Shown: piece by piece, positions 6,856 through 49,658 of the stretch
Position numbering within the stretch: the stretch's first letter is position 1
Layout of the letters: every line of letters begins with the position of its first letter
Origin: Candidatus Woesearchaeota archaeon
GTDB taxonomy: Archaea; Nanobdellota; Nanobdellia; SCGC-AAA011-G17; JACPNG01
DNA length: 64,000 bases
Assembly (NCBI GenBank): GCA_016185605.1
Contig: JACPNG010000009.1
Location: forward strand, 53,838-117,837
Direction of reading: 5' to 3'
Program-made: the position numbers and the translations under genes
Notes under the pieces: generated by a model
The model's database searches: none
What the model saw: the letters and a program-made list of their open reading frames with translations, nothing else
Told to the model about the DNA's origin: nothing

Positions 6856-7514
6856 ATGATTGATTTAAACAAGCAAAATGAATTGTTTAAAATATTTGGC
6901 GAGAAACTAAAGAAAAAAACAGAATGTTATGTTATTGGGGGCTCTGCTATGATCTATTATGGAATGAAAGATTCAACTAAATATATTGATCTTGTTTTTG
7001 AAAAAGAAAAAGACAGAGAATATATTGTGAAATTACTAAATGATCTGGGCTACAGAGAAAGAAAACAAGTGTTTTGTATTTCAAAAAGAAAAACACTCCA
7101 ATCCTTTTGCAAAGGGAAGATATAAGATTTGATCTGTTTTTTTATAAAATTATCAGCACAGTTCTTAGCGAAGGCATGAAAGACAGAATAAGATCTGTTT
7201 ATGAATATTCAAATTTTATTATTAAAGTTTTATCTCCAGAAGACTTAATTATTACAAAATGCGCAACTGAAAGGGCAGGTGATAGGGTTGATGCTGCTGA
7301 AATTATAAAGAAAACTGAAATTGACTGGAATATATTAATTAATGAAAGCATCTACCAATCAAAGGCAACACCATATTTATTTCCTGTATTTTTATTTGAT
7401 TTCTTATATGAATTAAAAGAAGATTTAAATGCTGATATCCCCAAAGAGGTTATAAATAAGATTAGAAAAATCGCAGAAGAGATGTTAGTTGAAAGAGTAA
7501 AGAAAAAGAAATAG
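6856..7514 (+). pseudogene. nucleotidyltransferase-fold protein (minimal NTase motif GGSA...DID) split by a 1-nt frameshift in an A5 run near 7083-7087
   Basis: ORF 6856-7125 (frame 1) and ORF 7074-7514 (frame 3) overlap by about 80 nt. Inserting one A in tcaaaaagaaaaacact joins them as ...RKQVFCISKRKNTPILLQREDIRFDLFF.... The N-terminal part has the G[GS]x(9-13)DxD-like NTase signature YVIGGSAMIYYGMKDSTKYIDLVF. Confidence 0.5.
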
Positions 7515-8909: not shown

Positions 8910-8954
8910 TTTTATTAATATATATAATTCTAATATATTCATTATAAAATAGTC

Positions 8955-8968
8955 TTATTTATATAAAG
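8955..8968 (+). promoter_or_regulatory. candidate TATA box (tttatataaag) about 25 nt upstream of the GT2 gene ATG; a leaderless transcript is likely
   Basis: The sequence cttatttatataaagtc is centred about 25 nt before the ATG at 8987. Confidence 0.3.
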
Positions 8969-8986
8969 TCTATAAGTATTAGATTT

Positions 8987-20898: not shown

Positions 20899-20977
20899 TT
20901 TGATGCCATAGATTTAAATATATCTTCCATTATAAAACTTAAAAGAATCGCATGATAGATGACGAAAGTGATAAAAA

Positions 20978-22105
20978 TTGAGGTTTAGAAAGATATTATT
21001 ATTAGTAATGACAATTTTTCTATTTTTTTTAATAGGCGAATTAATAACTAGAGCTTTTCTATACTTTGATAAAGAGAATTTAGAATATATACATATTGAA
21101 AAATATGATGAAATTAATAAATATCCAGACAAAGAAGTTTCTTTAATTGAAATTATAAAACTTAGCAAAAATAGAAAAATTATATATGAGCTAAGGCCTA
21201 ATGTTACTGGAGTTTATACTAAAAAAAATGTTAAAATAAACTCCAGAGGATTAAGAGACTACGAATACACTTTAGAAAAGCCAAGCAATACTTTCAGGAT
21301 TGTTGGAATTGGAGACTCTATAATGTTTGGATTAGGCATTGATTTAGAAGATACATTTCTAAAAGTTTTGGAAAGAAAGCTTAATGAAAATTCAAACTCT
21401 ATTAAGTATGAGGTAGTTAATTTTGCAGTTCCAGGTTATAACACAGTTATGGAGGTTGAGACATTGAAAGAAAAAGCTATAAAATATAATCCAGATTTAG
21501 TTATATTAAGTTTTAGTAGTAATGATATGCATCTTCCCAATTTTATAAAAAATAAAATAAAATTTAGATTGGATAAATCTTACTTTTACGATTTTATTCT
21601 TCAGAGAATATCACATTTAAGGCAAAAAGAAGATTTAAAAGCGAGACTTATTGGCTCCCCATTTAGAGTTGATGAAAATGGCTCTTTCTACGAATATGAA
21701 AGTGAACTTTTAAATGTTCCTCCAGAGTATAAAGATTTGGTTGGATGGGATAGCATAAAAAGAGCACTTAAAGATTTAAATGATTTTACATCTAAAAAAG
21801 ATATAAAAGTTATTGTTCTTTTAGATTACAGCGACAATGAAATTATTGAACCATATATAAGGAATAATGATTATTATGGCTATTCAGAAAAAGTAACGTA
21901 TAATCAAGAAGTTAAAAAACATGCAAAGGGGTATAAATTTTATTGGTTGGATCCTTTTTTTGGATTCTCCGAGTATATGAATAAAAATAATGCTACATTT
22001 TCTGATTTGATAGTATCAGAAATAGATCACCCGAATGAGAGATTTAATCAAATTATAGGAAACCAATTATTCAATTTTTTAGTAGAAAATAATCTTGTTG
22101 GTTAA
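20978..22105 (+). CDS. membrane-anchored SGNH/GDSL hydrolase (candidate glycan O-acyl esterase or transferase)
   Basis: 375 aa. N-terminal TM. Block I is IVGIGDSIMFGLG (GDS nucleophile). The C-terminus has the DHPNERFNQI His block. Confidence 0.75.
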   Translation: MRFRKILLLVMTIFLFFLIGELITRAFLYFDKENLEYIHIEKYDEINKYPDKEVSLIEIIKLSKNRKIIYELRPNVTGVYTKKNVKINSRGLRDYEYTLEKPSNTFRIVGIGDSIMFGLGIDLEDTFLKVLERKLNENSNSIKYEVVNFAVPGYNTVMEVETLKEKAIKYNPDLVILSFSSNDMHLPNFIKNKIKFRLDKSYFYDFILQRISHLRQKEDLKARLIGSPFRVDENGSFYEYESELLNVPPEYKDLVGWDSIKRALKDLNDFTSKKDIKVIVLLDYSDNEIIEPYIRNNDYYGYSEKVTYNQEVKKHAKGYKFYWLDPFFGFSEYMNKNNATFSDLIVSEIDHPNERFNQIIGNQLFNFLVENNLVG

Positions 22106-22190
22106 TATCATATATCGAAAGAAAAAATTTATTAGAAAGATATCAATGAATCAACATTAATTATTTAAACTATTGATATTAATTTAGTTT

Positions 22191-22952
22191 ATGTTCACCA
22201 AACAGGAGATTAATCTAATAAAAGAGTTAACACTAAATGAGCTTAAACTTAAATATAGAAATTCTTTTCTTGGTTTTTCATGGTCTTTTTTAAAGCCATT
22301 ATCTATGTTAATGATACTATACCTAGTTTTTAAGGTTTTTATTAAAATAGATGTCAATAATTATGCTTTGGTTTTGTTATTAGGAATATTAATATGGAAT
22401 TTCTTTGCAGAAAGTACATCTTTTGGTTTAAGTTCTATAAATTCAAAAGCCAGTATAGTTAAAAAGATTAATTTCAAATATGAGATATTGATTATAAGTA
22501 ACTGTTTAACTTCTTTTTTATCTTTTTTATTAAATTTTTTGGTCTTTATTATAATCCTACTATTTGCCAAAGGCATGCCATCATTATTAAGTATTTATAT
22601 TATAATTCCAATAATAGAGATATTCCTAATATCTTTAGGCTTATCTTTTATTCTGTCAATTCTTTTTATAAGATATAAAGACATAATACATATTTGGGAT
22701 ATTTTTTTACAAATAGGTTTTTGGATAAGTCCAATAGCCTATCCAATAGACCTTATTCCTTTAGAGTATAAAAAAGCTTATATGTTAAATCCATTAGCTA
22801 ATATTATAACTGCCTCAAGAGATGTAATATTAAATAATAGACCCCCTTCATTAAGTTTGATATTTACAAGTTTGATAACAACATTAGTCATTTTGGTATT
22901 TGGTTATTTGATTTATAGATATAATCATAAGAATATAGGGGAGTATTTATGA
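22191..22952 (+). CDS. ABC-2 type polysaccharide exporter permease (Wzm/TagG-like)
   Basis: 253 aa, 6 TM helices, ABC-2 family organisation. Overlaps the downstream ATPase by 4 nt. Confidence 0.8.
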   Translation: MFTKQEINLIKELTLNELKLKYRNSFLGFSWSFLKPLSMLMILYLVFKVFIKIDVNNYALVLLLGILIWNFFAESTSFGLSSINSKASIVKKINFKYEILIISNCLTSFLSFLLNFLVFIIILLFAKGMPSLLSIYIIIPIIEIFLISLGLSFILSILFIRYKDIIHIWDIFLQIGFWISPIAYPIDLIPLEYKKAYMLNPLANIITASRDVILNNRPPSLSLIFTSLITTLVILVFGYLIYRYNHKNIGEYL

Positions 22953-24187
22953 TAGAAGTAAAAAATTTGAGTAAATCATTTAGAATACAAAATGAAAAAA
23001 CGGATACTTTATTTGACGTAATAAAAAATATAAGAATGTCAAAAAACTATACCAATATCTGGGCTCTAAAAAATATAAACTTTAATGTGAAAAGGGGCGA
23101 ATTTATAGGAATAATAGGAGAGAATGGCTCTGGAAAAACAACTTTATTAAAAATAATAGCCAAAGTATTAAATCCTACAAAGGGTTATGTAAAAACAGAA
23201 GGCAGAATAGTACCGTTTTTAGAGCTTGGTCTAGGTTTCCATGATGAGTTAACCGGCAGAGAAAATGTTTACTTATATAGCCAAATAATGGGTTTAGACA
23301 AAAAAGAAGTAAACGAAAAAATAGAAGATATAATAAGATTCTCAGGAATAAAAAATTTCATTGATGCTAAATTAAATACTTATTCTTCTGGAATGAAAGT
23401 AAGATTAGCATTTTCTACAGCTATCCAAACTAATCCAGATATAATTTTAGTAGACGAGGTTTTAGCTGTAGGAGATATGAAATTCCAACAAAAATGTTTT
23501 GATATCTTCAGAAAATTTAAAGAAGATAAAAAAACTGTTTTATATGTGTCTCATGATATGAGTTCCATAAAAAAATTTTGTGATAGAGTTATACTATTAA
23601 ATAAAGGGAGACAAATAATAATAGATGAGCCAGAATATGTAACTGATAAATATTTCTATAGTATGATAAGAGATAATGAAAAAAATAGAATAGAATTTAG
23701 AACGGAAGCCAATAAGCCTGACTTTAGACGCATTGAAGATTTGAAAAAAACAGTTAATATTAGGTGGGGCACAAAAGAGATTGAGATTACTAAAGTAGAA
23801 CTATTTAATAAATTTAATAAAAAGAGCAATATGTTTGTTAGTGGCGATCCTTTAAAAATAAGGATACATTATAAAAAGAATGAAGAAATTAAAAACCCCG
23901 TATTTGGCATAGGAATTTTTTATGAAAACGGAAAACATTGCTTTGGCACAAATACACAAGTAGAAAAATATAAGATAAACAAAATTAATGAAAGAGGATA
24001 CATTGATTTTTTTATAAGAAAGATTATTATGTGGGAAGGAAATTTTTATTTGAATGTTATGGTACACGACGATAAACACTATCACTATGATTGGCATAAT
24101 AAAACATATATGTTTAAAGTAGTAAAACTTAATAATTATGATCAAGGTCTATTTAATTTAAATTGCAAATGGAAGATTTCAAAATAA
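22949..24187 (+). CDS. ABC exporter ATP-binding protein (Wzt/TagH-like) with a C-terminal glycan-binding extension
   Basis: 412 aa. Walker A GENGSGKTT. Signature YSSGMKVRLAF, the TagH/Wzt-type variant. A roughly 170-aa C-terminal extension follows, as in Wzt substrate-recognition domains. Confidence 0.88.
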   Translation: MIEVKNLSKSFRIQNEKTDTLFDVIKNIRMSKNYTNIWALKNINFNVKRGEFIGIIGENGSGKTTLLKIIAKVLNPTKGYVKTEGRIVPFLELGLGFHDELTGRENVYLYSQIMGLDKKEVNEKIEDIIRFSGIKNFIDAKLNTYSSGMKVRLAFSTAIQTNPDIILVDEVLAVGDMKFQQKCFDIFRKFKEDKKTVLYVSHDMSSIKKFCDRVILLNKGRQIIIDEPEYVTDKYFYSMIRDNEKNRIEFRTEANKPDFRRIEDLKKTVNIRWGTKEIEITKVELFNKFNKKSNMFVSGDPLKIRIHYKKNEEIKNPVFGIGIFYENGKHCFGTNTQVEKYKINKINERGYIDFFIRKIIMWEGNFYLNVMVHDDKHYHYDWHNKTYMFKVVKLNNYDQGLFNLNCKWKISK

Positions 24188-25122
24188 GAGGTCCATATTG
24201 GTTAGTCTATTTTCCAACAGACTCATGTAATTATAAGTGTAAACATTGCTATTTAGAAAATATTCCGGAAAAAGATGAAATGGATTATGAAGAAGTGATG
24301 AGGATATTTTCTAATTCTAGTCTATTAAAAAATACAAGAATTGGGATTTCTGGCGGAGAGCCATTTACAAAAAGGGACATAGTAGATATATTAACTGGCT
24401 TATCTAAAATGGGATATAAATTAGAGATTACAACAAACGGGGCATTTCCAGAAAAGATAGGGGATTTTCTGATGAATTCAAATACAACCAAAGTTGACAT
24501 TGCGATTTCTATAGATGGTTTAAAGGACATTAATGATGAGATAAGAACTAAAGGGGGATTTAATAAAGCAATTGAAAGTATTAAAATTATAAAAGATATT
24601 GGAGTAAATCTATTACAAGTCAATACAGTAATTCAAAAATTAAATATTAACCAGTTAGAAGAGATAAAACAATATTTTTCTTCATTTGTAGACCATCATT
24701 TCTTTATACCATTATTAAGTACAAGAAATAATAGAGTTGATTATACAGACAAAGAAATTGAAAAGATCTTAGAATATATGCATTATAAATTTGACATTAA
24801 ATATTTAATAACAAAGGGGGAATTTAGGATTAAAGATTGTCATTCAGGCCAAACAACTTGTTTTATAGATCCTACTGGAAAAGTGTTTACATGCATGACT
24901 GGGCAAAGATATTTTTTTCCAAGAAAAAATTATTTCATGGGAGATTTAAGAAAAATTAATTATAGTTTTGACGATTTATGGATATCTAAGCAGGCAGAAA
25001 TTGCCAGAAAAGATGTTAAAAAATGCGAGGGATGCTATAATGCCTGTGAAGTTCATAGAGAAAAATCCTGGCATGGATTAGATGATAATATAGATTGGGA
25101 GATTATTTCAAAAAAATGGTAG
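24163..25122 (+). CDS. radical SAM protein (SPASM/twitch-like C-terminus)
   Basis: 319 aa. CNYKCKHCY (CX3CX2C) near the N-terminus. C-terminal Cys cluster CEGCYNACEV. Confidence 0.8.
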   Translation: MQMEDFKIRGPYWLVYFPTDSCNYKCKHCYLENIPEKDEMDYEEVMRIFSNSSLLKNTRIGISGGEPFTKRDIVDILTGLSKMGYKLEITTNGAFPEKIGDFLMNSNTTKVDIAISIDGLKDINDEIRTKGGFNKAIESIKIIKDIGVNLLQVNTVIQKLNINQLEEIKQYFSSFVDHHFFIPLLSTRNNRVDYTDKEIEKILEYMHYKFDIKYLITKGEFRIKDCHSGQTTCFIDPTGKVFTCMTGQRYFFPRKNYFMGDLRKINYSFDDLWISKQAEIARKDVKKCEGCYNACEVHREKSWHGLDDNIDWEIISKKW

Positions 25123-25661
25123 ATTTATTTAAAGTAAATAACGTTAATATAAATTTTAAAGAAATAGAGTTAGAGATAAACAAAAGAGTAAATGAGGGGG
25201 GAAAAAGATTTGATGATTATGATAATGATATACAAGATTTTGAAATTGAAAAAATAGAAGTTTCTGATAATTTAGTTAACCATTGTAATATAAAAATTCC
25301 TAGAGAGATAACTTCCCATAGACCGGTTATAGGCAATACGCTAATAAAAATAAGGCAGATACTAGATGATGAGATAAGAAGGTCTTTAGATCCTATGGTA
25401 AATAGACAGATAGAAATCAATATGAATATAGTTAATAGGTTAAATAAAATAGAAAGAATAACAGAAGAGAATGAGATAAGAACTAAGGGATTAAATAAAA
25501 CACTAGATAGAGTAGAAAGAATAACAGAAGAGAATGAGATAAGAACTAAAAGGCTAGAAAAAGTATTTGATGAGATAATTAATCAAACAAACTCTAATAT
25601 AAAAGAGATTTTTAAACTAAATCGAAAGTTAAAGGAAAAAAAATGGAAATTAGCCAGATAA
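25095..25661 (+). CDS. hypothetical coiled-coil protein with an internal 20-aa tandem duplication
   Basis: 188 aa, charged and helical. Contains IERITEENEIRTKGLNKTLD / VERITEENEIRTKRLEKVFD. Confidence 0.5.
   Translation: MGDYFKKMVDLFKVNNVNINFKEIELEINKRVNEGGKRFDDYDNDIQDFEIEKIEVSDNLVNHCNIKIPREITSHRPVIGNTLIKIRQILDDEIRRSLDPMVNRQIEINMNIVNRLNKIERITEENEIRTKGLNKTLDRVERITEENEIRTKRLEKVFDEIINQTNSNIKEIFKLNRKLKEKKWKLAR
25451..25546 (+). repeat. two 36-nt exact copies (agaaagaataacagaagagaatgagataagaactaa) spaced 60 nt apart inside a coding sequence
   Basis: Seen directly at 25451-25486 and 25511-25546. Confidence 0.8.
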
Positions 25662-27706
25662 CAGCGTCTATAACTAGAGATGGAGATTCGATAAGCAATT
25701 ATTTATTAGAGATAAGAAATCTTTTAATTGAACAGGGATTTGAATCTTACATCTATGTTGAAAATAAAGACTTCTTCTCCTATTTTATAAAAGATTATAG
25801 GGATTGTAAACCAAAAAAAGACGATATAATAATATTACATGCCACGATTGGTAGTAATATAACAACTTTTTTCAAGAATTTAAGATGTAAAAAGATAATG
25901 ATATATCATAATCATACTCCGGCAGAGTTTTTTAGAGATATAAATAATGAAAACTTTAGATTGCTTAATAGTTATAATGAAGATCTTAAATCACTAATTA
26001 ATCATGTGGATTATGTTATAAGTGACTCTGAATTTAATAAACAAGATTTGGAGAAAATAGGCTTTAAAGACATAAAAGTCAGTCCAATATTCATTAATTT
26101 TAACAGATTCAATGATATGAATAATTATATTTTTAATAAGTTCAATGATAATTATATTAATATAATTCATGTTGGTAGGATAATACCCAATAAAAAAATA
26201 GAGGACATTATAAAGATATTTTATTATTATAAAAATTTTATAAATTCTAAATCTAGATTATTCTTAATTGGAAGTATTTCCAGTGATGCTAAAAGATACT
26301 ATAATGCATTAACAAAATATATAAATAAACTGAATTTAAAGGATGTTTATTTTTTAGGCAATATTAACAATAAAGATTTAACAGCGTACTACAAACTGTC
26401 AAATATATTTTTACATATGAGCGAACATGAGGGCATGGGTTTACCGTTAATAGAAGCGATGTATTTTAATATACCAATAATAGCTTTTAATTCCACCGCT
26501 ATACCCTATACATTAGGCGATTCAGGAATATTAATAAATTATAAATATCATAAAAAAATAGCTGAATTAGTTAATATTATATTAAATAATATGGGGCTTA
26601 AAGATAAGATAATAAAGATTCAAAGAGATAGATTAAAATTCTTTGATACTGAAAATTTAAAAGAACAATTTTTGCAACATATAATAAATGTAAAGAATTT
26701 AGATTTGCCTTATGATAATAATATAATAGATTATTCAGAAAATTCTAAAGATAATAAATTAAACATAGTTAATAAGTTTGGAGATATTATAAAAAACTTA
26801 AGAAAAAAAGATGAAAATAAAACAAATTATGATAGTTATAATTTTATATTTAATCATCCGGAGTCTATAACAGAAATAAAAATTCTTTATATACAACCTA
26901 AAGGCGTTGGCGATATTATAATGTCTACTCCAATATTAAGGGCTTTAAAAAAGAGATATCCTTATGCACTTATAGATTTTGTAGCTGATAAATACTGTAA
27001 AGATGTAATAATAAATAATCCAAATATTAGAAATGTTTATTCTTTTGATAAACTTCCTAATTTACAAGAATATATACTGGTGCTTAGGCCATATCTAAAA
27101 ACACAGTATATGTTAAATTGGCAAGATACTGGAATACATATAGTTGATTTATATGCTTCTTTATGTGGAGTTAAGTTAGATAGTTACAAAACTGAGATAT
27201 CTCCACTACAAGTAGATTTACAAGAATATGGTATAGATGAAAAAGAAGATTATATTTGTTTACATACACAAAGTTCACTAAAGTATAAAGATTGGTCTTA
27301 TTTTAAAGAGTTGATAAAGAAATTAAAAGATGAATTTAATATTGTAGTAATAGATGAACAACAACATAATTATAAATATACAATACAATTGCCACAAAAT
27401 ATAAAATTAAGAGAAAAAGCCTATATTATTAGTAAAAGCAAAATGTTAATAGGTATAGACTCTATGGGAATACATATGGCCTGTGCATTTGACATTCCGA
27501 CAATTGCTTTATATGGAAATACTCTTCCAGAATTATGTAAACCTTTATCTAATAAAAATCTTATAACAATAGAACCTAAAAAAAGATGTATAGAGGGTTG
27601 GCATCATTTTTGTAAAGAAGATAATTATTGCATAAATAGTATAAGTGTAGATAATGTATTAGAAAAAGTAGATTTTATTTTAAAAAAGAATCAATTAGTA
27701 GCGTAA
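25643..27706 (+). CDS. bifunctional glycosyltransferase: N-terminal GT4 domain fused to a C-terminal GT9 (heptosyltransferase-family) domain
   Basis: 687 aa. GT4 motif EGMGLPLIEAMYFNIPIIAF at about aa 260-280. GT9-like start IKILYIQPKGVGDIIMSTPILRALKKRYPYALIDFV at about aa 410, which matches the LSSLGD(V/I)...P...AL motif of WaaC/WaaF. Confidence 0.78.
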   Translation: MEISQITASITRDGDSISNYLLEIRNLLIEQGFESYIYVENKDFFSYFIKDYRDCKPKKDDIIILHATIGSNITTFFKNLRCKKIMIYHNHTPAEFFRDINNENFRLLNSYNEDLKSLINHVDYVISDSEFNKQDLEKIGFKDIKVSPIFINFNRFNDMNNYIFNKFNDNYINIIHVGRIIPNKKIEDIIKIFYYYKNFINSKSRLFLIGSISSDAKRYYNALTKYINKLNLKDVYFLGNINNKDLTAYYKLSNIFLHMSEHEGMGLPLIEAMYFNIPIIAFNSTAIPYTLGDSGILINYKYHKKIAELVNIILNNMGLKDKIIKIQRDRLKFFDTENLKEQFLQHIINVKNLDLPYDNNIIDYSENSKDNKLNIVNKFGDIIKNLRKKDENKTNYDSYNFIFNHPESITEIKILYIQPKGVGDIIMSTPILRALKKRYPYALIDFVADKYCKDVIINNPNIRNVYSFDKLPNLQEYILVLRPYLKTQYMLNWQDTGIHIVDLYASLCGVKLDSYKTEISPLQVDLQEYGIDEKEDYICLHTQSSLKYKDWSYFKELIKKLKDEFNIVVIDEQQHNYKYTIQLPQNIKLREKAYIISKSKMLIGIDSMGIHMACAFDIPTIALYGNTLPELCKPLSNKNLITIEPKKRCIEGWHHFCKEDNYCINSISVDNVLEKVDFILKKNQLVA

Positions 27707-28190
27707 CGCTCTAAGATCCTTTCAATTATTCTTGTAGTAGAAAATCCTTTTTCTACTTCGAATGTTTTATACTTGCCTCCTAATCCTTCTATAAGTTCTC
27801 TCTCATCTTTCATTCTTTTCTCATCATAAGTTCCGCCTTTTATATGTATATCTGGCTTTATTCTCCTTAAGTAATCAAGAGGGTCATCTCCATAAAAAAT
27901 TACAACATAATCAACATATCTTAAATAAGTTAGAACTTTAGCCTTCTCTTGTTGTTCAATAATAGGTCTTTTTTCTCCCCCTTATTTCGCCTAATAGAAT
28001 CATCACTATTAACTAAAACAATCAGAATATCTCCTTCACTTTTAGCCTTTGAAAGAAGATTTACATGTGCTGAGTGTAATATGTCAAAACTTCCGTTAGT
28101 AGTAACAACTATTTTTTGTTCTAATTTTAAATTTCTAGAAATTTGCTCCATTTCTTCAATTGTTTTAATTCTATCTTGTATAGCTTCCAT
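27692..28190 (-). pseudogene. HldE-domain-II/RibL-like cytidylyltransferase-fold nucleotidyltransferase with a 1-nt frameshift at an A6 run (about 27966-27972)
   Basis: The N-terminal part (86-aa ORF) has the HxGH motif [13 protein letters not shown]. Adding one A in gagaaaaaagacc restores ...[54 protein letters not shown]...STTRIIERILERYATN, which aligns with the E. coli HldE C-terminal domain. Confidence 0.6.
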
Positions 28191-28965
28191 ACTCTTTTCT
28201 TTCTATTACCTCATCTGTATAATAATCATTTAATTGAATATTCCAACTTACTTTTGATTCTATAAATGCAATATCACTAATCTTTAAAGGTTCTGAAAAT
28301 AAAATTCCATTTCTTATATCTTGGTTTACTTCTTTAAGAAATTCTATATAATTTTTGAAATTTTTATTTAATTCTATAAGATTATAGAATCTCATAAAAG
28401 TAGTGTGTATAGTTTTTGGAATATCCGGTTTTCCATCTCTTTTATCAAAATAAAAATTCTCATTTGAGAGTAGCCCTTGAGATATTTGACTACGTATATT
28501 AAAAATCTCCCCTTCATTATCTAATGGTTCATAAGTCATAATTCCCAGAGGAGATAGCACTCTTACTTTTAATGAGAATGAACTAAAATTAATTGATCTA
28601 AAAACTTCTAAATATTCTTTATAATATTGAAATTTATTCTTATCTGGTTTATAATAAAAACCATCTTTTAAACTACTATTTCTAATAATTACACATAAAG
28701 AGATATGTGTCTTATCATTTCCATAAATGAATTGGCTAGGTAGAATTTTTCTGAGTTCATAAATTAAAACATTAAAATCTTTTTGTAAACTATGTGTTCT
28801 AAATAATGGAATCCCAGCAACGATACTAATCCCAAACGGGGTTACTTTGTGATCTATAGATTTAGCAATATCTGGTGTAAATCTCCATAAGCGTCTCTCT
28901 TCCTCACTAATTCTTTTTCTATAATCAGATACTAAATTTGAATGTATTAATCTTTCCAAACTCAT
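28171..28965 (-). CDS. hypothetical protein with two H-phi-[ST]-phi motifs (2H phosphoesterase-like; low confidence)
   Basis: 264 aa. HISL at about aa 87 and HTTF at about aa 187, spaced about 100 aa apart as in LigT/CPDase 2H enzymes. Overlaps the upstream nucleotidyltransferase pseudogene by 20 nt, so it is probably in the same operon. Confidence 0.4.
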
Positions 28966-29038
28966 CTTAATTAAGGTATATATTTATCTATCATTAAATT
29001 TAAATAGTTAATAAGAAAAAATATTTAAAAGCTTATCG

Positions 29039-29449
29039 GTGGATTTTATGGAGGATATACTAAATAAGGTATTAAGTAATGATGAAATAGCTAAAAAATC
29101 TAGAGGATTAAAAAAACAAGGGAAAATCATAGTAATGGCTAATGGAAGTTTTGACCTTCTTCATATAGGTCATATAGATCTTTTAAGGCAAGCAAAAAGA
29201 AAAGGTGATATTCTTATTATTGCCATAAATAGTGATTTATCTATAAGAACTTATAAAGGGAATGATAGACCAATTATACCTGAAAAAGAGAGGGCACTTA
29301 TGCTAGCCTCTCTATTCTTTGTTGATCATGTTACTATATTTAATGAAAGTAAAGCATTAAATATTATAGAAAAGATTAAACCTGATATTTTAGTCAAGGG
29401 GATAAGGCCTGATCCAGAAAGATTAGAAGAAGAAAAAAGAATTAGTTAA
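29039..29449 (+). CDS. HldE-domain-II-like sugar-phosphate nucleotidyltransferase, copy 2; its C-terminal tail is cut off by a frame change at an A6 run
   Basis: 136 aa. MANGSFDLLHIGHIDLL (HxGH), INSDLSIRTYKGNDRPIIPEKER, DILVKGIRPDPE. Strongly similar to E. coli HldE-II (VNSDASTKRLKGDSRPV...LLVKGGDYKPEE). The missing conserved tail LFGGKIEYVKESISRSTSDIIEDIRG is encoded in the next frame right after the stop. Confidence 0.7.
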   Translation: MDFMEDILNKVLSNDEIAKKSRGLKKQGKIIVMANGSFDLLHIGHIDLLRQAKRKGDILIIAINSDLSIRTYKGNDRPIIPEKERALMLASLFFVDHVTIFNESKALNIIEKIKPDILVKGIRPDPERLEEEKRIS

Positions 29450-29960
29450 TTTATTTGGAGGCAAAATAGAATATGTCAAAGAATCTATTAGTAGATCTAC
29501 TAGTGATATAATCGAAGATATTAGGGGACAAAAATCTCGTTCTGAAGATGATAGGATTTATGATAAAATGCCAGAGGTGTCAATAAAAATATTAAGTAAT
29601 GATGAAATAGCTAAAAAATCTAGAGGATTAAAAAAACAAGGGAAAAAAGTTATAATGGTAAACGGCGTATTTGATATGCTCCATATAGGGCATATTGGTT
29701 TTTTGAGAAAAGCAAAAGAAAAAGGGGATGTTTTATTTGTGGCTGTTAATAGCAATCAATCTGTTAAATCTTACAAAGGGGAGAATAAACCAATTATACC
29801 TGAAAAAGAGAGGGTACTTATGCTAGCCTCTCTATTCTTTGTTGATCATGTTACTATATTTAATGAAAGTAAAGCATTAAATATTATAGAAAAGATTAAA
29901 CCTGATATTTTAGTCAAGGGGATAAGGCCTGATCCAGAAAGATTAGAAGAAGAAAATGTA
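29039..29960 (+). repeat. tandem segmental duplication of a nucleotidyltransferase gene (blocks about 29068-29125/29590-29647 and about 29271-29440/29801-29960 are near-identical)
   Basis: Direct comparison of the two gene copies shows long identical runs, including about 170 nt encoding PIIPEKER(A/V)LMLASLFFVDHVTIFNESKALNIIEKIKPDILVKGIRPDPERLEEE. Confidence 0.8.
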
Positions 29961-30032
29961 ACAACATCTAGTGGACAAATTATAGATAAAATAAGGGGTG
30001 TCAGTAGTGAGGGTATTAATAATAGTCAATGA
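29568..30032 (+). CDS. HldE-domain-II-like sugar-phosphate nucleotidyltransferase, copy 3 (recent tandem duplicate of copy 2)
   Basis: 154 aa. MVNGVFDMLHIGHIGFL. The stretch PIIPEKER...RLEEE is identical at nucleotide level to copy 2. Confidence 0.75.
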   Translation: MPEVSIKILSNDEIAKKSRGLKKQGKKVIMVNGVFDMLHIGHIGFLRKAKEKGDVLFVAVNSNQSVKSYKGENKPIIPEKERVLMLASLFFVDHVTIFNESKALNIIEKIKPDILVKGIRPDPERLEEENVTTSSGQIIDKIRGVSSEGINNSQ

Positions 30033-31410
30033 TTTTATCATAGAACCTTTAGGTTTAATGTCAATAATTGCAGTCCTTAAAAAGGAGAGTCATAAAGTTG
30101 AACTTCTAAAAATAAACTCCAGAAGAAAAGAATTTGGTTCTGCTAGAAATGATGAGGAGATATTTAATTTTTTGGAGAAATTTTCACCAGATTTGATATT
30201 GTATAGTACTACAACAGGCATGCATAAATTATATCTGAATATAAATAAAAAACTGAAAGAGAGATTTAATTTCATATCAGTTTTTGGCGGAATGCATGTT
30301 TCTTTCTTTCCAGACTTTATTAATGAAGAAAGTGTTGATATTATATGTATTGGTGAAGGAGAAGAAGCAATAAGTGAGTTAGTTAATAATCTGGAAAGTG
30401 GCGAAGAAATAATAAACATAAGAAATTTATGGATTAAAAAGGGCCATCAATTATATAAAAATAATTTAAGACCATTAATGGAAGATTTGGATAGTCTACC
30501 GTTTCCTGACAGAGAAATAGTCTATAGGTATGGACTCCATAAAAGAAATCCAATAAAAAACTTCATAACAACAAGGGGTTGCCCATATAAATGTTCTTAT
30601 TGTTTTAATGACGGCTTTTATAAGCTTTATAACCTAAATGGTAACAGAAGAGTTAGATCGAGAGGCGTAAATAATATAATAAGCGAAATTAATGAAGTAA
30701 AAAATAAATATAAATTAAAGTTAGTTTATTTTCAAGATGATATTATCACATTAAATGAGAACTTCAAAGAGTTAATGGAAGAATATAGAAGAGAAATTAA
30801 CATCCCTTTCCATGCACATATAAGACCAGATTTAGTTAATGATTATACAATTAAATTATTAAAAAAGGGTGGTTGTCTTAGTGTTACAATGTCTGCCGAA
30901 ACAGCCAATGACAATACAAGAAATAATATGATTAATAGAAACATGTCTAAACAGAGTATATATCTGGCTGCTAAGCTACTCCATAAATATGATATAAAAT
31001 TCAGAATAGAAAATATGTTGGGATTGCCTAATGAAACTTTAAAAGATGCATTTGATACATTAGAAATGAACATAAAATGTAAACCAACAATTGGTTGGGC
31101 ATCGATATTTCAACCATATCCTGGAACAGAATTATTTAATTATACTAGAGATAATAACTTGTTTAACGGGGAGGTTGATACTTTTAACAATTCTTTTTTT
31201 GATAACAGTGTTTTGGATATAAAAAACAAAAAAGAAGTAGAGAATCTTCAAAAACTATTTTCTATAACTGTCTCTTTTCCCTTCTTAAAGCCCATAACTA
31301 AACAGCTCATAAAACTGCCGAAAAACAATTTATTCAATTTTGTGCATGACGGATGGAAAAGTTACTGTTTTGATAATAAATTATATAAAGTAAATGGTTT
31401 TAAGAGTTAA
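29998..31410 (+). CDS. B12-binding-domain radical SAM protein (class B)
   Basis: 470 aa. The N-terminal Rossmann-like domain RVLIIVNDFIIEPLGLMSIIAVLKK is typical of the cobalamin-binding domain. CX3CX2C in TTRGCPYKCSYCFN. Confidence 0.8.
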   Translation: MSVVRVLIIVNDFIIEPLGLMSIIAVLKKESHKVELLKINSRRKEFGSARNDEEIFNFLEKFSPDLILYSTTTGMHKLYLNINKKLKERFNFISVFGGMHVSFFPDFINEESVDIICIGEGEEAISELVNNLESGEEIINIRNLWIKKGHQLYKNNLRPLMEDLDSLPFPDREIVYRYGLHKRNPIKNFITTRGCPYKCSYCFNDGFYKLYNLNGNRRVRSRGVNNIISEINEVKNKYKLKLVYFQDDIITLNENFKELMEEYRREINIPFHAHIRPDLVNDYTIKLLKKGGCLSVTMSAETANDNTRNNMINRNMSKQSIYLAAKLLHKYDIKFRIENMLGLPNETLKDAFDTLEMNIKCKPTIGWASIFQPYPGTELFNYTRDNNLFNGEVDTFNNSFFDNSVLDIKNKKEVENLQKLFSITVSFPFLKPITKQLIKLPKNNLFNFVHDGWKSYCFDNKLYKVNGFKS

Positions 31411-31413
31411 AAC

Positions 31414-32910
31414 ATGTATAATTATCTAAAAAACAAAATTTTCCCATCATTTCTATTTATATTAATCATAATCTCTCTTCTATTAGTTGGCAACTCATTA
31501 ACTGAATTTTTTACCAAAGGCGATTATGCTAAATTAGAAGAGGAAAAATATATCATATTAAATGAAGATTACAAGTGTATTGATTGTAATGTTATAATAA
31601 TTGGAATTGACACGCTAAGGGCGGATCATTTAGGCTATAATGGGTATTATAGAAATACTTCCCCGAATATAGATGAATTTTCTAATGAAGGTGTAGTTTT
31701 TAAAAATACGTTTTCTCAGGCACCCTCCACATTGCCTTCTTTTGCAACAATCTTTACTTCATTATATCCAATAATGCATAAAGCACAAATTGAAAATGGG
31801 CCTGTTGCGCTAAGTAATGAATCTAAAACTATAGCTGAAATATTAAAAGAAAACGGATATTATAATATAGCATACACTGGTGGCGGTCAAGTGGCTAAAG
31901 AATTTGGTTTAGGTCAAGGATTTAATATTTATGAAGGCAATGTATGTTATAATTATATAACTGCCCCATTAATTAAAAAAGGTGTAATTGCTGACCTTAA
32001 ATGTCTAGAAGATAGCATTGAAATCGTGATGCATAATATCAATTTAAATAAAGACAGAAAATTCTTTTTATTTTTCCATAATTATGTTACACATTATCCC
32101 CATGTTTTATCAACTAATAAATATTCTATATTTACAGATTACAATAATATAAGAGAAGAATATTCTAACATAATAACCGATCCTTTAGTAGTAAAGAATA
32201 AATTAGTGGAAGATATAAATAATGGCAAAATTAAGATGAATAATGAATTAAAAGATTATATTATTGGAAGATACGATGATACAATATATTACATGGATGA
32301 TTGGATAGGATATTTATTGGAAGAAATAAAAAAATCAGATATCATGGATAATACAATAATCATATTTCTAGGAGATCATGGCGAAGAATTTACAGAACAT
32401 GGGATGATTGGATTACATAGCCACACCCTTTATGATGAACTTTTGCATGTGCCTCTGATAATAAAATATCCAAAATCTAAACCAAAAGTTATAGATCAAC
32501 AAGTAAGATTAATTGATGTTATGCCAACAATACTAGATATATTAAATATAAGCATAAAAGAAGAATTACAGGGAGAGACACTAATACCCATAATTCAAGG
32601 TAAAGATAAGAAACTGCCAGTATTTAGCTCACTAGAGTATACGAGTGAAGGTCAACCATTAAAGATATCAATTAGAAAAGACAGCTTTAAACTGATCTAT
32701 GATCTAAAATATAAAAGAACAGAACTTTTTGATCTTTCTAAAGATAAAAATGAACTTAATAATGTAGCAAGTAAGCACAAAGCTAAAGCTAACGAGTTAA
32801 AAAAGGAATTATTGGAATGGTATGAAAACAACAAAAATTATAATATGGAGAAAGAAAAAATACATGACGCTACATTATTGGAATTGAAATCTTTAGGTTA
32901 TATAAATTAA
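31414..32910 (+). CDS. membrane-anchored sulfatase/alkaline-phosphatase-superfamily enzyme with Thr at the nucleophile position (a phosphotransferase such as LtaS/EptA is more likely than a sulfatase)
   Basis: 498 aa. N-terminal TM. Metal-binding start IIIGIDTLRADHLGYNGY. The nucleophile segment aligns as STLPSFATIFTSLYP against canonical C[ST]PSRxxxLTGR, with Thr in place of Cys/Ser and no Arg. Confidence 0.75.
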   Translation: MYNYLKNKIFPSFLFILIIISLLLVGNSLTEFFTKGDYAKLEEEKYIILNEDYKCIDCNVIIIGIDTLRADHLGYNGYYRNTSPNIDEFSNEGVVFKNTFSQAPSTLPSFATIFTSLYPIMHKAQIENGPVALSNESKTIAEILKENGYYNIAYTGGGQVAKEFGLGQGFNIYEGNVCYNYITAPLIKKGVIADLKCLEDSIEIVMHNINLNKDRKFFLFFHNYVTHYPHVLSTNKYSIFTDYNNIREEYSNIITDPLVVKNKLVEDINNGKIKMNNELKDYIIGRYDDTIYYMDDWIGYLLEEIKKSDIMDNTIIIFLGDHGEEFTEHGMIGLHSHTLYDELLHVPLIIKYPKSKPKVIDQQVRLIDVMPTILDILNISIKEELQGETLIPIIQGKDKKLPVFSSLEYTSEGQPLKISIRKDSFKLIYDLKYKRTELFDLSKDKNELNNVASKHKAKANELKKELLEWYENNKNYNMEKEKIHDATLLELKSLGYIN

Positions 32911-32997
32911 GATTTAGGAAAGGTTATTAATATAATGAATGATAGGCTATAATATTTTTTAAATTAAAATTTATTTTTAAAATATAAGAAGTGGTAA

Positions 32998-34362
32998 ATG
33001 GTCTCTATAATTGAAATTAAAAATAACTCAAGAAAAAGAAGAATTAAGATAATATTATTAATAATAGCTGTATTATTCTTTTTTAGTCCTTTTTTTATTA
33101 CATACTCAAATGAGATAAATAAACTTTTTTTTACTTTACCATATATACATCCTGGAGATGAACCACACTATTTAGCTATGACTAGTAGTATTATAAAGGA
33201 TTTTGATTTAGAAGTAAAAAATAATTATGAAAATGCTGTAGCTGGCAAAGGAGATACTGGTTTTAAATACAGATATGAAAGAATCAGTCGTCATGCAATT
33301 TTGGTAGATGGAAAAACCAATATTAGATATAATCTAGATGATATTTATAACCTAAGTGGTTCTGGATTCTCGCTAAACGGAGAATCCCCCACTATACGTG
33401 ATGATCTAGAAAATACTGATACTGCTAATTTAAAAGAACGACCTACACGTTATATAGGACTGCCTTTTTTTAGCTCTATTTTTTTATGGCCTTTTAGAAA
33501 TTCTTTAAATTTAGATTCTATTGCAATTTTATTGAGTGCTATTGTTTCTCTTATTGGCTTCTACTTTTTATATTTAGTATTAATTCATTTTAAAAATAAT
33601 GAAAATAAAGTGTTATTCATAACAATTATCTTTATTTTCACAACACAACTATGGTTTTACTCAAAAACATTTTATCCTGACCCCTATATAGCTTCTTTTT
33701 TAATTATTTCTTACTATTTTTTTATTGTTAAAAATAAAGTTGCTATCTCCGGCATTCTATTGGGCTTAGCATTCCTCATGAAATATAATATGATTATTTT
33801 CCCAGCTATATTTGCATTATACCTATTAAAAAATAAAAGGTTTAAAAAGTTTTTTCTTTTTAGTTTAACCATTGGGATTTTTGCATTTCTTCTTTTAATT
33901 TACAATTTTATAATGTGGGGGAATTTATTATTCTCTCATCTTCATTTTATGTACGGAAATATTATTTCTGGGATTTTAGGACTGCTCTTTTCATTAGATC
34001 ATGGTTTAATTATATTTACACCTCTCCTTATATTCTCATTTTTTGGCTTTTATCAATTCTATAAACAAAAAAAAGATGAAGCTATATTTACTTTCATACT
34101 TTTTTTTACATATCTATTGATAATGTCTGCATTTTTAGAATGGCATGGGGGCTTTTCTTATGCTACAAGACACTTAATTCCAATAATGCCTTTATTATCT
34201 ATCCCTCTTCTGTTTTGGTATGATTCAAATAGAAGTAAAAGCTTGAAAATGATATTTTTTATATTAGTTATTATATCTTTTATTTTTAGTTTATATTCAG
34301 TTTTTGCTGATCAAAGTTATGTTTTAGACAAACCGCCCTTATTTCCATATATAAAATTTTAG
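32998..34362 (+). CDS. GT-C-fold membrane glycosyltransferase (PMT/ArnT-like; DE motif GDEPHY in the first extracytoplasmic loop)
   Basis: 454 aa, about 11 TM helices. HPGDEPHYLAMT resembles the PMT DE(V)HF / ArnT DEARY loop-1 motif. Confidence 0.5.
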   Translation: MVSIIEIKNNSRKRRIKIILLIIAVLFFFSPFFITYSNEINKLFFTLPYIHPGDEPHYLAMTSSIIKDFDLEVKNNYENAVAGKGDTGFKYRYERISRHAILVDGKTNIRYNLDDIYNLSGSGFSLNGESPTIRDDLENTDTANLKERPTRYIGLPFFSSIFLWPFRNSLNLDSIAILLSAIVSLIGFYFLYLVLIHFKNNENKVLFITIIFIFTTQLWFYSKTFYPDPYIASFLIISYYFFIVKNKVAISGILLGLAFLMKYNMIIFPAIFALYLLKNKRFKKFFLFSLTIGIFAFLLLIYNFIMWGNLLFSHLHFMYGNIISGILGLLFSLDHGLIIFTPLLIFSFFGFYQFYKQKKDEAIFTFILFFTYLLIMSAFLEWHGGFSYATRHLIPIMPLLSIPLLFWYDSNRSKSLKMIFFILVIISFIFSLYSVFADQSYVLDKPPLFPYIKF

Positions 34363-34373
34363 CCACAAAACAT

Positions 34374-35063
34374 ATGAAATTATCAATAATTATACCAGTT
34401 TATAACGAGGAAAATACTATTGGTGAAATAATAAAGAGAGTAAAAGAAGTAAAATTTCCAATAAAGAGAGAAATTATTATTATTAATGATGGTAGTAATG
34501 ATAATACTTCTAATATACTTAAAAAAATTAGAGGAATAAATGTTATAGAATATAATAACAATATGGGAAAGGGCTTTGCTATAAAGCAGGGTATTAATAA
34601 TATTAGAGGAGATATAATAGTAATTCAAGATGCTGATCTAGAATATGATCCAAATGAAATACCCTCGTTATTAGAGCCGATAATAAAAAATGAAACGAAC
34701 ATAGTATATGGATCTAGAATGCTTAGAAAGAATAAGATATCATATTTTCATTTTTATTTAGGCAGTAAAATTTTGACATTCTTAACAAAATTATTATATG
34801 GTGTTTTAATAACTGATGTGGAAACTTGTTATAAATTATTTAAGGCGGATATAATTAAGAAAATAGATATAAAGGCCATGGGTTTTGATTTTGAATCAGA
34901 AGTAACTGCAAAACTATTAAATATGAAAGAAAAGATCATCGAACTGCCTATAAGCTATACCCCAAGAAGAATTAATGATGGGAAAAAAATAAGATTAAAA
35001 GATGGTGTGATTGCTTTGGGAGTGTTAATAAAATATAGAATAGATTACTATAACAAAAAATGA
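34374..35063 (+). CDS. GT2 glycosyltransferase (DPM1/GtrB-like polyprenol-phosphate sugar synthase)
   Basis: 229 aa. LSIIIPVYNEENTIGEII and DADLEYDP. Confidence 0.85.
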   Translation: MKLSIIIPVYNEENTIGEIIKRVKEVKFPIKREIIIINDGSNDNTSNILKKIRGINVIEYNNNMGKGFAIKQGINNIRGDIIVIQDADLEYDPNEIPSLLEPIIKNETNIVYGSRMLRKNKISYFHFYLGSKILTFLTKLLYGVLITDVETCYKLFKADIIKKIDIKAMGFDFESEVTAKLLNMKEKIIELPISYTPRRINDGKKIRLKDGVIALGVLIKYRIDYYNKK

Positions 35064-36430
35064 TAAAGAATTTAGATTCAATGAAAATTAGAATATGTTT
35101 AATTAATGTTACTAATAAAGATAAAATGGTTATGAATAAAGACCTTAATGGTGGATTCGGAACATGTGATGATTATGGGAATAGCATAACATCTAAAATA
35201 ATAAGGTTTATAAAAAGCAGAACAATAAAGCTCCCGATAATAAGTTACGCGTTTCTGCAGGCAATATTTAAACAACAAGGACATGAAGTTGAGTATTATG
35301 AAGATAACTTTCCGGATAAATCTAAAAATTTTGATTTGATTCTTATATATGGTACAATAGTTGATTTTAAAAATGAAAATATGGTGTGTATAAAACTAAA
35401 ACAAATGTTTCCTACTGCAAAGATTGGAATATTTGGACCTTTTCCATCAGTTATGCCAGAATTATTTAAAAGTGGGGATTTTGTTATAGTCGGAGAGGCA
35501 GAAGCATATTTTATGAATGATTTTAAACATTTAGATAATTTAAGAGGATATGTAAAAGTTTCATCTCAAACTAATATGGAATCCTTACCAAGTCCTTGTT
35601 ATGACGGCTTTCCGATAAATAAATATTCATATTATCCAGCCATTAGAAAAAAACCACTTCTTACTCTTCAAGCAAGTAAAGGATGTCCATATAGCTGCAG
35701 ATATTATTGTGTATATGGAAATTATCAAGGAGTTAAAATAAGACAAAGATCTCCAAGAAGAGTAGTGGAGGATATGATATATCTTAAGAAGAATTACAAT
35801 GTTAAAGGAATACAATTTAGAGATCCTACATTTGGGTTTAATAGAAATTTCATTCAGGAATTTTGCAATGAATTAAAGCATAAGAACTTAAATATAGACT
35901 GGGGGATGGAAACTAGATTGGACCTATTAAATAAAAATAATATTAAAATGATGTATGATGTCGGACTTAGAAATATAAATGTCGGGATAGAAACTATCAA
36001 TTTATATGTAGCTAAAAAAAACAGAAGAAAGTTGATAGAAACAAATCATCAAGAGGAGATAATAAAATATTGTAAGAGATTAGGTATAAATATATCAGCT
36101 TTTTTTATTATAGGATATGAAGGTGATACAAAGGAGACAATAGAAAACACAATCAAATATGCAATAAAAATCAATGCTCCATTGGCTAGATTCTCAGTAG
36201 CTACGCCATATCCTAGCACTGAATATTATGAACTTCTTGAAAAAGAAGGAAGATTATTAATAAAAGACTTTGAAAGATATAATCAGTTTACATTAGTGTA
36301 TAAGCATAAAAACTTAAATGAAGACGAAATTAGAAATTTATTAGAAAAATCCTATAGGGATTATTATTTTAGAATGTCTTACATTTTATCTCTAATAATG
36401 CGGAAAGTAAGGATGGCATCGGTTTTTTAA
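35060..36430 (+). CDS. B12-binding-domain radical SAM protein with a non-canonical CX3CX3C cluster motif
   Basis: 456 aa. Reads QASKGCPYSCRYYCVYG, i.e. gga tgt cca tat agc tgc aga tat tat tgt, in place of the usual CX3CX2C. Confidence 0.72.
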   Translation: MIKNLDSMKIRICLINVTNKDKMVMNKDLNGGFGTCDDYGNSITSKIIRFIKSRTIKLPIISYAFLQAIFKQQGHEVEYYEDNFPDKSKNFDLILIYGTIVDFKNENMVCIKLKQMFPTAKIGIFGPFPSVMPELFKSGDFVIVGEAEAYFMNDFKHLDNLRGYVKVSSQTNMESLPSPCYDGFPINKYSYYPAIRKKPLLTLQASKGCPYSCRYYCVYGNYQGVKIRQRSPRRVVEDMIYLKKNYNVKGIQFRDPTFGFNRNFIQEFCNELKHKNLNIDWGMETRLDLLNKNNIKMMYDVGLRNINVGIETINLYVAKKNRRKLIETNHQEEIIKYCKRLGINISAFFIIGYEGDTKETIENTIKYAIKINAPLARFSVATPYPSTEYYELLEKEGRLLIKDFERYNQFTLVYKHKNLNEDEIRNLLEKSYRDYYFRMSYILSLIMRKVRMASVF

Positions 36431-36480
36431 TTTTATATAACAATTATATTTAAATATATTTAATCACTCCAATTCGAGAT

Positions 36481-39879: not shown

Positions 39880-39880
39880 A

Positions 39881-41032: not shown

Positions 41033-41148
41033 AATAGGGTATATATGAAAGGTGATATAGAACTACTCTGTCCAAATATCATTAGAATACTAACTAATAA
41101 AAGCATAATCAGTATAGGAAGTAACCACCATTTTTTATTCTCTTTCAT
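41029..41148 (-). CDS. conserved small membrane protein (39 aa: MKENKKWWLLPILIMLLLVSILMIFGQSSSISPFIYTLF)
   Basis: Found by manual minus-strand translation; it is absent from the ORF track. To my recollection, a KKWWL...PFIYTLF-type small protein is a recurrent neighbour of NodU/CmcH carbamoyltransferase genes. Confidence 0.45.
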   Translation of the reverse strand: MKENKKWWLLPILIMLLLVSILMIFGQSSSISPFIYTLF

Positions 41149-41205
41149 AAAACCCCATGAGTCTCTTAAAAGATAAAATCTAGTCATATCATTCTAATAA
41201 ATCAA

Positions 41206-42882: not shown

Positions 42883-42883
42883 T

Positions 42884-43111
42884 TTAAAACATTTTATAAT
42901 GACTTTTATTTTCCCTGTATTCTCTCCAATAAGTACATTTATTGTTTGAATCTAGAAATTTTTTATTAGATATTTTAGCAAATAAACTTACTATTCCTAT
43001 GCCTATAAAATAAACAAAAGTCAATAGTATTATATTTATAATAAACTGGATAAATAAACTTATTCTCTTAAATAAATCTAATAAACTTTTGAAAATATTT
43101 CTCATCATCAT
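42884..43111 (-). CDS. small single-TM protein directly upstream of the carbamoyltransferase (possible SxtJ-like partner)
   Basis: 75 aa with one hydrophobic helix FIINIILLTFVYFIGIGIVSLFA. There is a 1-nt gap to the carbamoyltransferase start. Confidence 0.4.
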   Translation of the reverse strand: MMMRNIFKSLLDLFKRISLFIQFIINIILLTFVYFIGIGIVSLFAKISNKKFLDSNNKCTYWREYRENKSHYKMF

Positions 43112-49641: not shown

Positions 49642-49658
49642 AAAAAGAGATAGCAAAA

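Follow-up and report, generated by a model that had tools for sequence, protein, structure and literature searches.

The described systems that come closest to the locus analysed here are (i) the sugar-phosphate nucleotidyltransferases of the HldC/RfaE domain II family (TIGR02199; PDB 5x9q), (ii) enzymes with two cytidylyltransferase folds in one chain, namely ECT/Pcyt2 (PDB 3elb) and uncharacterised prokaryotic tandem proteins such as P0001, P0002 and P0241, and (iii) genes with variable homopolymer tracts, such as Listeria inlA (A7/A6) and the poly-G glycan genes of Campylobacter. The locus lies in a 64,000-nt stretch of contig JACPNG010000009.1 (hereafter the window) and comprises three nucleotidyltransferase copies: copy 1 on the minus strand, split by a frameshift, and copies 2 and 3, which follow one another on the plus strand. 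The reading that we favour, with modest confidence, is that copy 1 is a real pseudogene, that copies 2 and 3 are one two-domain gene, and that the lesions which the window shows in copies 2 and 3 are most likely assembly or polishing errors at a repeat boundary.

All three copies match the HldC/RfaE domain II family best, over the whole model once repaired, and HldC (5x9q) is their best match among solved structures (88 bits). The superfamily cut-offs are exceeded by all (PF01467, 63–72 bits against a cut-off of 21; TIGR00125, 52–65 bits against 27.7). With HldC the copies also share the C-terminal S-T-T/S motif, an adjacent gene of the GT9 (heptosyltransferase) family and the HxGH nucleotide-binding motif, which appears as HIGH in copies 2 and 3 and as HSAH in copy 1 and its DPANN orthologs. 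They differ from it in having an archaeal host, in lacking genes for GmhA, heptose kinase and GmhB in the window, and in scoring 140–156 bits against the TIGR02199 equivalog cut-off of 181.5 (155.8 for repaired copy 1, 150.2 for copy 2 and 140.5 for restored copy 3). The predicted activity is RfaE-domain-II-like, and action as a heptose-1-phosphate adenylyltransferase is putative.

Like ECT and the tandem proteins, the reconstructed gene would encode two cytidylyltransferase folds per chain; unlike them, it has a canonical HIGH motif in both domains and blocks of identical DNA (57 nt and ~170 nt) shared between the domains. It also differs from most metagenomic two-domain relatives, in which the first domain is degenerate. 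With the Listeria and Campylobacter genes the locus shares frameshifts at short A-runs in surface-glycan genes and a possible A5/A6 length difference, here between the window and a second assembly.

Copies 2 and 3 in two assemblies

We compared the window with contigs of the Logan collection, which are built from a k = 31 graph with singleton 31-mers dropped and each 31-mer placed in one contig per accession (PMC12424806). Contigs L001 and L086 both come from run SRR12113424 and represent the same strain as the window. The features of copies 2 and 3 are as follows, open reading frame being abbreviated as ORF.

29048..29449 (alternative start 29039), plus strand: copy 2, predicted domain 1 of a tandem-domain nucleotidyltransferase, with HIGH motif, cut off after residue 133
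29433..29438, plus strand: A6 run in copy 2; with A5 the frame is regained at the exact family length
29439..29567, plus strand: domain 1 tail ELVNLFGGKIEYVKESISRSTSDIIEDIRG and 13-residue linker, open in the +1 frame only
29568..30032, plus strand: copy 3, predicted domain 2, an open ORF without 16 conserved residues; the restored form matches rfaE_dom_II at positions 5–143 of 144
29956..29957, plus strand: deletion junction, where the window lacks 48 nt that are present in Logan contig L086; the contig has GAAAA[AGAATTAGTGAGTATTCATGGTTGGAAAATACAACAGATCATACATAA]TGTAAC
29070..29126, plus strand: identical block 1, 57 nt, equal to 29590–29646; contig L001 terminates 30 nt into it
29269..29436, plus strand: identical block 2, 26 + 141 nt with one mismatch at 29295, equal to 29789–29956; in the Logan version a 150-nt exact repeat

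As written in the window, copy 2 ends in EEEKRIS* after the A6 run, with the stop codon at 29447–29449, and there is no two-domain ORF. Removal of one A changes the site from GAAGAAGAAAAAAGAATTAGTTAATTTATTTGG to GAAGAAGAAAAAGAATTAGTTAATTTATTTGG and yields EEEKELVNLFGGKIEYVKESISRSTSDIIEDIRG; this A5 reading, EEEKELVNLFGGK, has exactly the length of the family. Its frame then stays open for 594 nt (198 codons), from the copy 2 tail through the 13-residue linker (DIIEDIRGQKSRSEDDRIYDKMPEVSIK) into copy 3, as far as position 30032. A sequence-only reading of this DNA had described the stop after the A6 run and the tail gained by dropping one A, both of which we find, with the run at 29433–29438 and not at 29431–29436 as it had stated; its estimate of an open frame of about 600 nt into copy 3 also agrees with the measured length. 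It had further taken the first 170 nt of copy 3 to be identical to copy 2, which they are not: at the DNA level the copies form a mosaic of 57 identical nt, 143 nt at 66% identity and 168 nt with one mismatch. The damage to copy 3 had been missed. Compared with L086, copy 3 in the window is short of 48 nt, or 16 conserved residues (KELV..GGK.., the GG strand), and its profile match ends at position 124 of 144; the full form reads GAAGAAGAAAAAGAATTAGTGAGTATTCATGG, and the deletion junction of the window reads GATTAGAAGAAGAAAATGTAACAACATCTAGTGG (short form GAAGAAGAAAATGTAACAAC).

Exact look-ups of the copy 3, GatD and Wzt products returned no record. A survey of Shine-Dalgarno motifs aimed at the start of copy 3 found the motif in only 13 of 49 genes and is hence uninformative. 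The 141-nt exact block has the length of the maximum k of MEGAHIT; since a graph with k = 141 would in any case be interrupted there, we take the agreement to be coincidental.

Contig L086 equals the window from 29957 to 42910 with 0 mismatches and extends leftward into an A5 run and 48 nt that are absent from the window. Its left end reads GAAGAAGAAAAAGAATTAGTGAGTATTCATGGTTGGAAAATACAACAGATCATACATAATGTAACA, the extra 48 nt encode KELVSIHGWKIQQIIH, and it is the addition of this segment that brings the domain 2 match to positions 5–143 of the model. The right end of L001 consists of one unique base and 30 shared bases of block 1, and the left end of L086 of 30 shared bases and the first unique base; the latter 30-mer is absent from the window and identical to copy 2 in its A5 form. 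L086 starts exactly 30 nt before a branch that would need A5 (GAATTAGT / GAATTAGTT) in the reads, and on the simplest reading these hold GAAAAAGAATTAGT followed by both G (copy 3) and T (copy 2). Such a branch of GAAAAAGAATTAGT at the start of L086 would mean that the reads contain an A5 allele of copy 2, which supports the homopolymer assembly error or heterogeneity that had been suggested for this copy. An exact-pattern search for A4–A7 variants in metagenomes of the Joint Genome Institute gave zero matches, and a literature search on run SRR12113424 found nothing.

With A5 the repeat period is 519 nt, that is 173 codons and in frame, and the window and L086 together give one 343-residue ORF with two full rfaE_dom_II matches (284.5 bits) and a HIGH motif in both domains. 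Because the A5 allele and the 48-nt segment of L086 restore the frame and domain 2, copies 2 and 3 are most simply read as the two domains of one native tandem-domain, RfaE-domain-II-like nucleotidyltransferase gene. The didomain enzyme proposed earlier is thus upheld by the in-frame period, by tandem-domain relatives and by a same-strain contig that restores domain 2. If dimeric HldC/GCT and two-domain ECT are a guide, the 343-residue protein would fold as an intramolecular pseudo-dimer.

The diverged centre separates the two domains (non-synonymous divergence dN 0.30, synonymous divergence dS 1.68, dN/dS 0.18): they are 54% identical to each other there, and either is 62–65% identical to the gene of the nearest relative. 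Because dN/dS is 0.18 and the domains are no closer to each other than to the relative's gene, they appear to be old paralogs under purifying selection, and the identical blocks are best explained by recent gene conversion that partly homogenized them. The nearest relative, P0229 (61% identity), is a single-domain protein of 164 residues with a copy 2-like N-terminus and a copy 3-like C-terminus. Its locus, L089, comes from sister runs and is collinear with window positions 18235–31410 at 49–72% protein identity. L089 has a lone intact 164-residue transferase gene between its GT4–GT9 fusion gene and its B12-binding radical SAM gene, and has neither copy 1 nor the 264-residue gene that precedes copy 1 in the window. 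From this comparison it follows that the window lineage gained the second domain and an inverted cassette of these two genes, and the domain fusion is, as far as the sequences indicate, lineage-specific. Two-domain cytidylyltransferases as such are already known and not new: databases contain P0001 and P0002, the former alignable over its whole length at 30% identity; among the top 150 cluster representatives, at least 20 are matched in two stretches, as is human ECT (3elb).

The same data bear on the idea that no true duplication exists and that the assembler strung two strain alleles of a single gene together to give copies 2 and 3. The single gene of the syntenic relative, the strain variation described below and the diverged centre between identical blocks, which resembles an assembly-graph bubble, would all fit such a join. 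We nevertheless regard it as very improbable. Unique sequence of ~150 nt links the copy 2 tail to a different N-terminus (MPEVSIK), a connection that allelic bubbles cannot make; the period is exactly in frame with A5; the dS of 1.68 and dN/dS of 0.18 in the centre lie far above a strain-level divergence of ~3 differences per 10,000 bases elsewhere; and the Logan contigs break at both repeats, as would be expected for two copies in one graph.

Copy 1 and the third split gene

Copy 1 belongs to the second kind of RfaE-domain-II-like sugar-phosphate nucleotidyltransferase gene at the locus, the other kind being that of copies 2 and 3. Its parts are as follows.

27930..28190, minus strand: N-terminal ORF of copy 1, 86 residues, HSAH motif, early stop after the A-run; called identically on Logan contig L001
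27969..27974, minus strand: A6 run (T6 on the plus strand), the frameshift site of copy 1; A4 in orthologs
27691..27968, minus strand: C-terminal two-thirds of copy 1, open in the −1 frame for 93 codons, all family-invariant residues present

The frame breaks at gagAAAAAAgacc, the A6 form in the sequence being AATAAGGGGGAGAAAAAAGACCTATTATTG, and the 86-residue ORF stops soon after gagAAAAAAgac. One additional A gives a product of 166 residues that matches rfaE_dom_II at positions 4–143 of 144. The split and this product had been described correctly by the sequence-only reading, which placed the run at 27966–27972. The added A is, however, not the true repair. Homologs of copy 1 (n = 108) are full-length proteins of ~160 residues, up to 66% identical, from sources named Nanoarchaeota, Pacearchaeota and Woesearchaeota; all aligned orthologs have KGxxRP at the site, one lysine fewer than the product repaired with one A. 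In the DNA of two orthologs the site reads GAG/GAT AAA AGA CCT, that is A4. Because the orthologs carry A4 and the window A6, the lesion amounts to +2 nt, and an in-frame +3 followed by −1 could be an alternative route to it.

L001 equals window positions 25520–29099 with 0 mismatches, A6 and split included, and because this independent contig shows the identical A6, the frameshift of copy 1 is present in the reads. Repaired copy 1 keeps every invariant residue and shows no second defect, for which reason the inactivation appears recent. Sequence comparison thus marks copy 1 as a real, recent pseudogene; of the recent pseudogenisation proposed earlier, it is this part that holds, given the frameshift in an independent contig, the absence of any other lesion and the intact orthologs. 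In our favoured reading copy 1 would be a DPANN-type enzyme in an inserted, inverted two-gene cassette, in which A4 grew to A6 by ordinary replication slippage; with the second enzyme type present, copy 1 was presumably redundant and its mutation therefore tolerated.

A third frameshift, which had been placed at the A-run 7083–7087, is also confirmed as a split of the gene, which is unrelated to the paralogues.

6856..7514, plus strand: DUF6036 nucleotidyltransferase-like gene, split into ORFs of 89 and 146 residues; the same split on Logan contig L087

The gene has A5 runs at 7083–7087 and 7089–7093, and the break lies somewhere among several short runs at 7062–7108. On L087 it is likewise split (89 and 135 residues), and because the split recurs there, we consider this frameshift real. 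An ortholog was sought in the GatD neighbourhood of the closest metagenome-assembled genomes (MAGs), where synteny stops at GatD.

Origin of the lesions

The frame of copies 2 and 3 is broken in the window by A5 to A6 in domain 1 and by the 48-nt deletion in domain 2. In the reading that we favour both would be assembly or polishing errors at a repeat boundary or, if real, at most a minority or defective allele. Both lesions fall within the homologous A5 run, at a distance of 9 nt from where the 150-nt exact repeat ends, and both are missing from the independent k-mer assembly of the same strain, where the A5 is inferred. The artefact is favoured because two independent mutations at homologous positions are unlikely and repeat-boundary errors are not, the latter being not unlikely above all where long-read assembly is combined with short-read polishing. 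The two independent frameshifts in paralogues of the sequence-only reading accordingly reduce to one real frameshift, in copy 1, and one at a repeat boundary that is contradicted by another assembly.

Several points weigh against this reading. The A5 of copy 2 is deduced from a contig end, and when the tail and linker of copy 2 were used to look for homologs, no Logan fragment over the copy 2 tail was found. A pure de Bruijn assembler cannot create the A6 or the deletion-junction k-mers. The window differs from Logan contig L087 at seven single-nucleotide polymorphisms (SNPs; 8447, 8451, 8468, 8804, 8819, 8885 and 10480), so that it represents a slightly different haplotype or consensus, and A6 and the deletion could be real alleles. 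No GmhA (SIS), heptose kinase (PfkB) or GmhB-type HAD gene was found among the genes of the 64-kb window or in the gene table of L086. If the window alleles are real and copy 1 is dead, all three transferase copies are lost beside an intact GT9 gene.

A tenable and less probable explanation is that the window is true for its own strain, with a defective allele (A6 and the 48-nt deletion) standing beside or replacing an intact one and the nucleotide-sugar step lost; such loss of function would be ordinary variation for a glycan island that is hypervariable. The seven SNPs, which point to coexisting strains or a differing consensus, supply the microdiversity that it needs, and graph-based assemblers put out read-derived k-mers only. 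Once a first lesion had inactivated the gene, a second would be neutral, and two further frameshifts in the window, in copy 1 and the DUF6036 gene, are real. As Minia is able to pop a 48-nt bubble, L086 may even be compatible with a deletion allele. On the other hand, the lesions sit at exactly homologous A-runs 520 nt apart, which is improbable if they are independent and expected at a repeat boundary. The flanks of the locus are otherwise identical over 16.5 kb, as is all compared window and Logan sequence outside the seven SNPs in 8447–10480, and microhomology at the 48-nt deletion is limited to 2 nt. Whether the window lesions are artefacts or a real defective allele, an intact two-domain allele exists. 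Six of the seven SNPs cluster in the gene of an FG-GAP repeat surface protein (7641–8909).

Errors at homopolymers in general do not account for the broken genes: the window has 305 A/T runs of at least six (196 of them A6/T6), and because only ~3 of these coincide with a broken gene, among ~55 genes, no general homopolymer error is indicated.

It had also been suggested that the A-runs are slippage-prone, phase-variable contingency loci that control glycan decoration. On this view reversible changes, A5/A6 in the two-domain gene and A6/A7 in copy 1, would act as a switch for the decoration and would also determine whether the two domains are coupled. DPANN genomes are AT-rich and have reduced repair, which would favour such tracts. 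The coding A-run of this surface-glycan gene is A6 in the window and A5, as inferred from the start of L086, in Logan. In Listeria inlA, moreover, A6 to A7 occurs at ~5.5e-7, ~1,000 times the point-mutation rate (PMC2831843). Because short A-runs mutate fast, slippage explains the origin of the mutations and not a regulatory role. In contrast to the Listeria and Campylobacter tracts, those of the window are not conserved: in orthologs the copy 1 site is A4, and the copy 2 site is GAAGAAGCTAAA, without a run. Nor are they unusually long. The copy 1 tract has the same length, A6, in the window and in L001; its lesion amounts to +2 nt compared with the family; A6 runs are commonplace in this genome, with 196 A6/T6 runs in 64 kb; and the A6 of copy 2 is linked on one allele to an irreversible 48-nt deletion. 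The suggestion is therefore not sustained, and we judge it improbable that a real, reversible A5/A6 population polymorphism in the two-domain gene switches the nucleotide-sugar supply and couples or uncouples the catalytic domains. If true, it would be the first case in these episymbiotic archaea of a cell surface that phase-varies through homopolymers.

Full-length proteins might also be made from the given sequence by programmed ribosomal frameshifting (−1 in copy 1, +1 in copy 2) or by transcriptional slippage. The downstream frames are open and conserved (93 codons in copy 1 and 198 codons from copy 2 into copy 3), the shift sites are AAA AAA lysine codons, and −1 frameshifting has an archaeal precedent in Sulfolobus fucA1 at A-AAA-AAT. 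Such recoding is nonetheless highly unlikely here. No stable RNA structure lies downstream (z-scores of +1.5 and +0.4 against shuffled sequence), and the copy 1 site, G AAA AAA, is not a canonical X XXY YYZ heptamer. In copy 2 the next zero-frame codon is AGA, at which no ribosomal pause is expected, AGA being usually the common arginine codon in AT-rich genomes. Efficient transcriptional slippage would need a longer run than A6; in orthologs the gene is one uninterrupted ORF; and an intact allele exists. Recoding of A6 templates would be expected to give the trans-frame peptides GEKKRPII and EEEKELVN.

Glycan island and gene neighbourhood

The 64-kb window encodes GatD, a three-domain ATP-dependent DNA ligase and FtsZ, and the nearest GatD proteins are those of Woesearchaeota and Nanoarchaeia MAGs (84–87% identity). 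By these genes the source organism is a Woesearchaeota-like DPANN archaeon. The window gave no tRNA or Rfam matches. An island of low guanine and cytosine (GC) content lies at ~10–46 kb (24–27% GC versus 33–35% in its flanks) and contains many glycosyltransferases, a Wzm/Wzt-type ABC exporter, sugar-modifying enzymes and radical SAM proteins, which places the transferase locus inside a surface-glycan island. The genes that adjoin the three copies are as follows.

25643..27706, plus strand: fused GT4–GT9 glycosyltransferase, 687 residues (Pfam Glycos_transf_1 and Glyco_transf_9), convergent with copy 1
28171..28965, minus strand: orphan gene of 264 residues, 5' of copy 1, with an overlap of 20 nt; missing from L089
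29998..31410, plus strand: B12-binding radical SAM gene, overlapping the end of copy 3; syntenic in contigs L002, L005 and L089

In L089, the syntenic relative, a gene of 643 residues is 60% identical to the GT4–GT9 fusion. The ends at which the fusion gene and copy 1 converge are spanned by an imperfect inverted repeat of 27 nt (70% complementary; window 27660–27755), which may be a shared terminator or a scar of cassette insertion. The orphan gene and copy 1 form the inverted two-gene cassette that L089 lacks, and the orphan gene appears to be translationally coupled to copy 1. Its product had zero Pfam and NCBIfam matches, including in a relaxed Pfam scan, and no relatives in scans of genome contigs and metagenome contigs. 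Motifs resembling HxT/S (THISL and IHTTF) are reminiscent by eye of 2H phosphoesterases; the AlphaFold model (pLDDT 39.5) is too poor to test the idea. A DUF4922-like neighbour in relatives was considered as a counterpart of the orphan gene and rejected as non-homologous.

In relatives the copy 1-type transferase gene adjoins a GT9 gene and lies near a B12-binding radical SAM gene. Genes for a cytidylyltransferase-like protein, a GT9 protein and a B12-binding radical SAM protein occur together in L002 (1610–6452), L005 (4973–9452), L089 (6085–9897) and the window (25643–31410); in L002 and L005, both with a copy 1-type transferase, a DUF4922-like gene joins the module. The recurrence of this set in several Woesearchaeota/Nanoarchaeota contigs may mark a conserved, uncharacterised glycan pathway.

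Radical SAM genes number six in the island as a whole (10000–46000), which also encodes a carbamoyltransferase and a protein of the sulfatase family. At its edge lies an AbiEii-type nucleotidyltransferase toxin gene of 236 residues (44542–45844, minus strand), and an overlapping gene of 200 residues upstream of it may encode the antitoxin. Flanking the island are two very large predicted surface proteins of 994 and 960 residues (46566–54097, plus strand), candidates for contact with the host, in which cadherin-like and Big_9/He_PIG immunoglobulin-like domains occur together with a thrombospondin type 3 repeat.

Taken together, the locus reflects mostly ordinary gene decay and a probable assembly problem at a repeat boundary, and annotation of the lesions in copies 2 and 3 as pseudogenes or contingency loci would probably be wrong. 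The biological value of the finding is modest: it lies in a lineage-specific tandem-domain nucleotidyltransferase, partly homogeneous by gene conversion, and in a redundant, freshly inactivated second transferase. Both are set in a hypervariable glycan island of an archaeon whose surface chemistry presumably mediates its contact with hosts and viruses.

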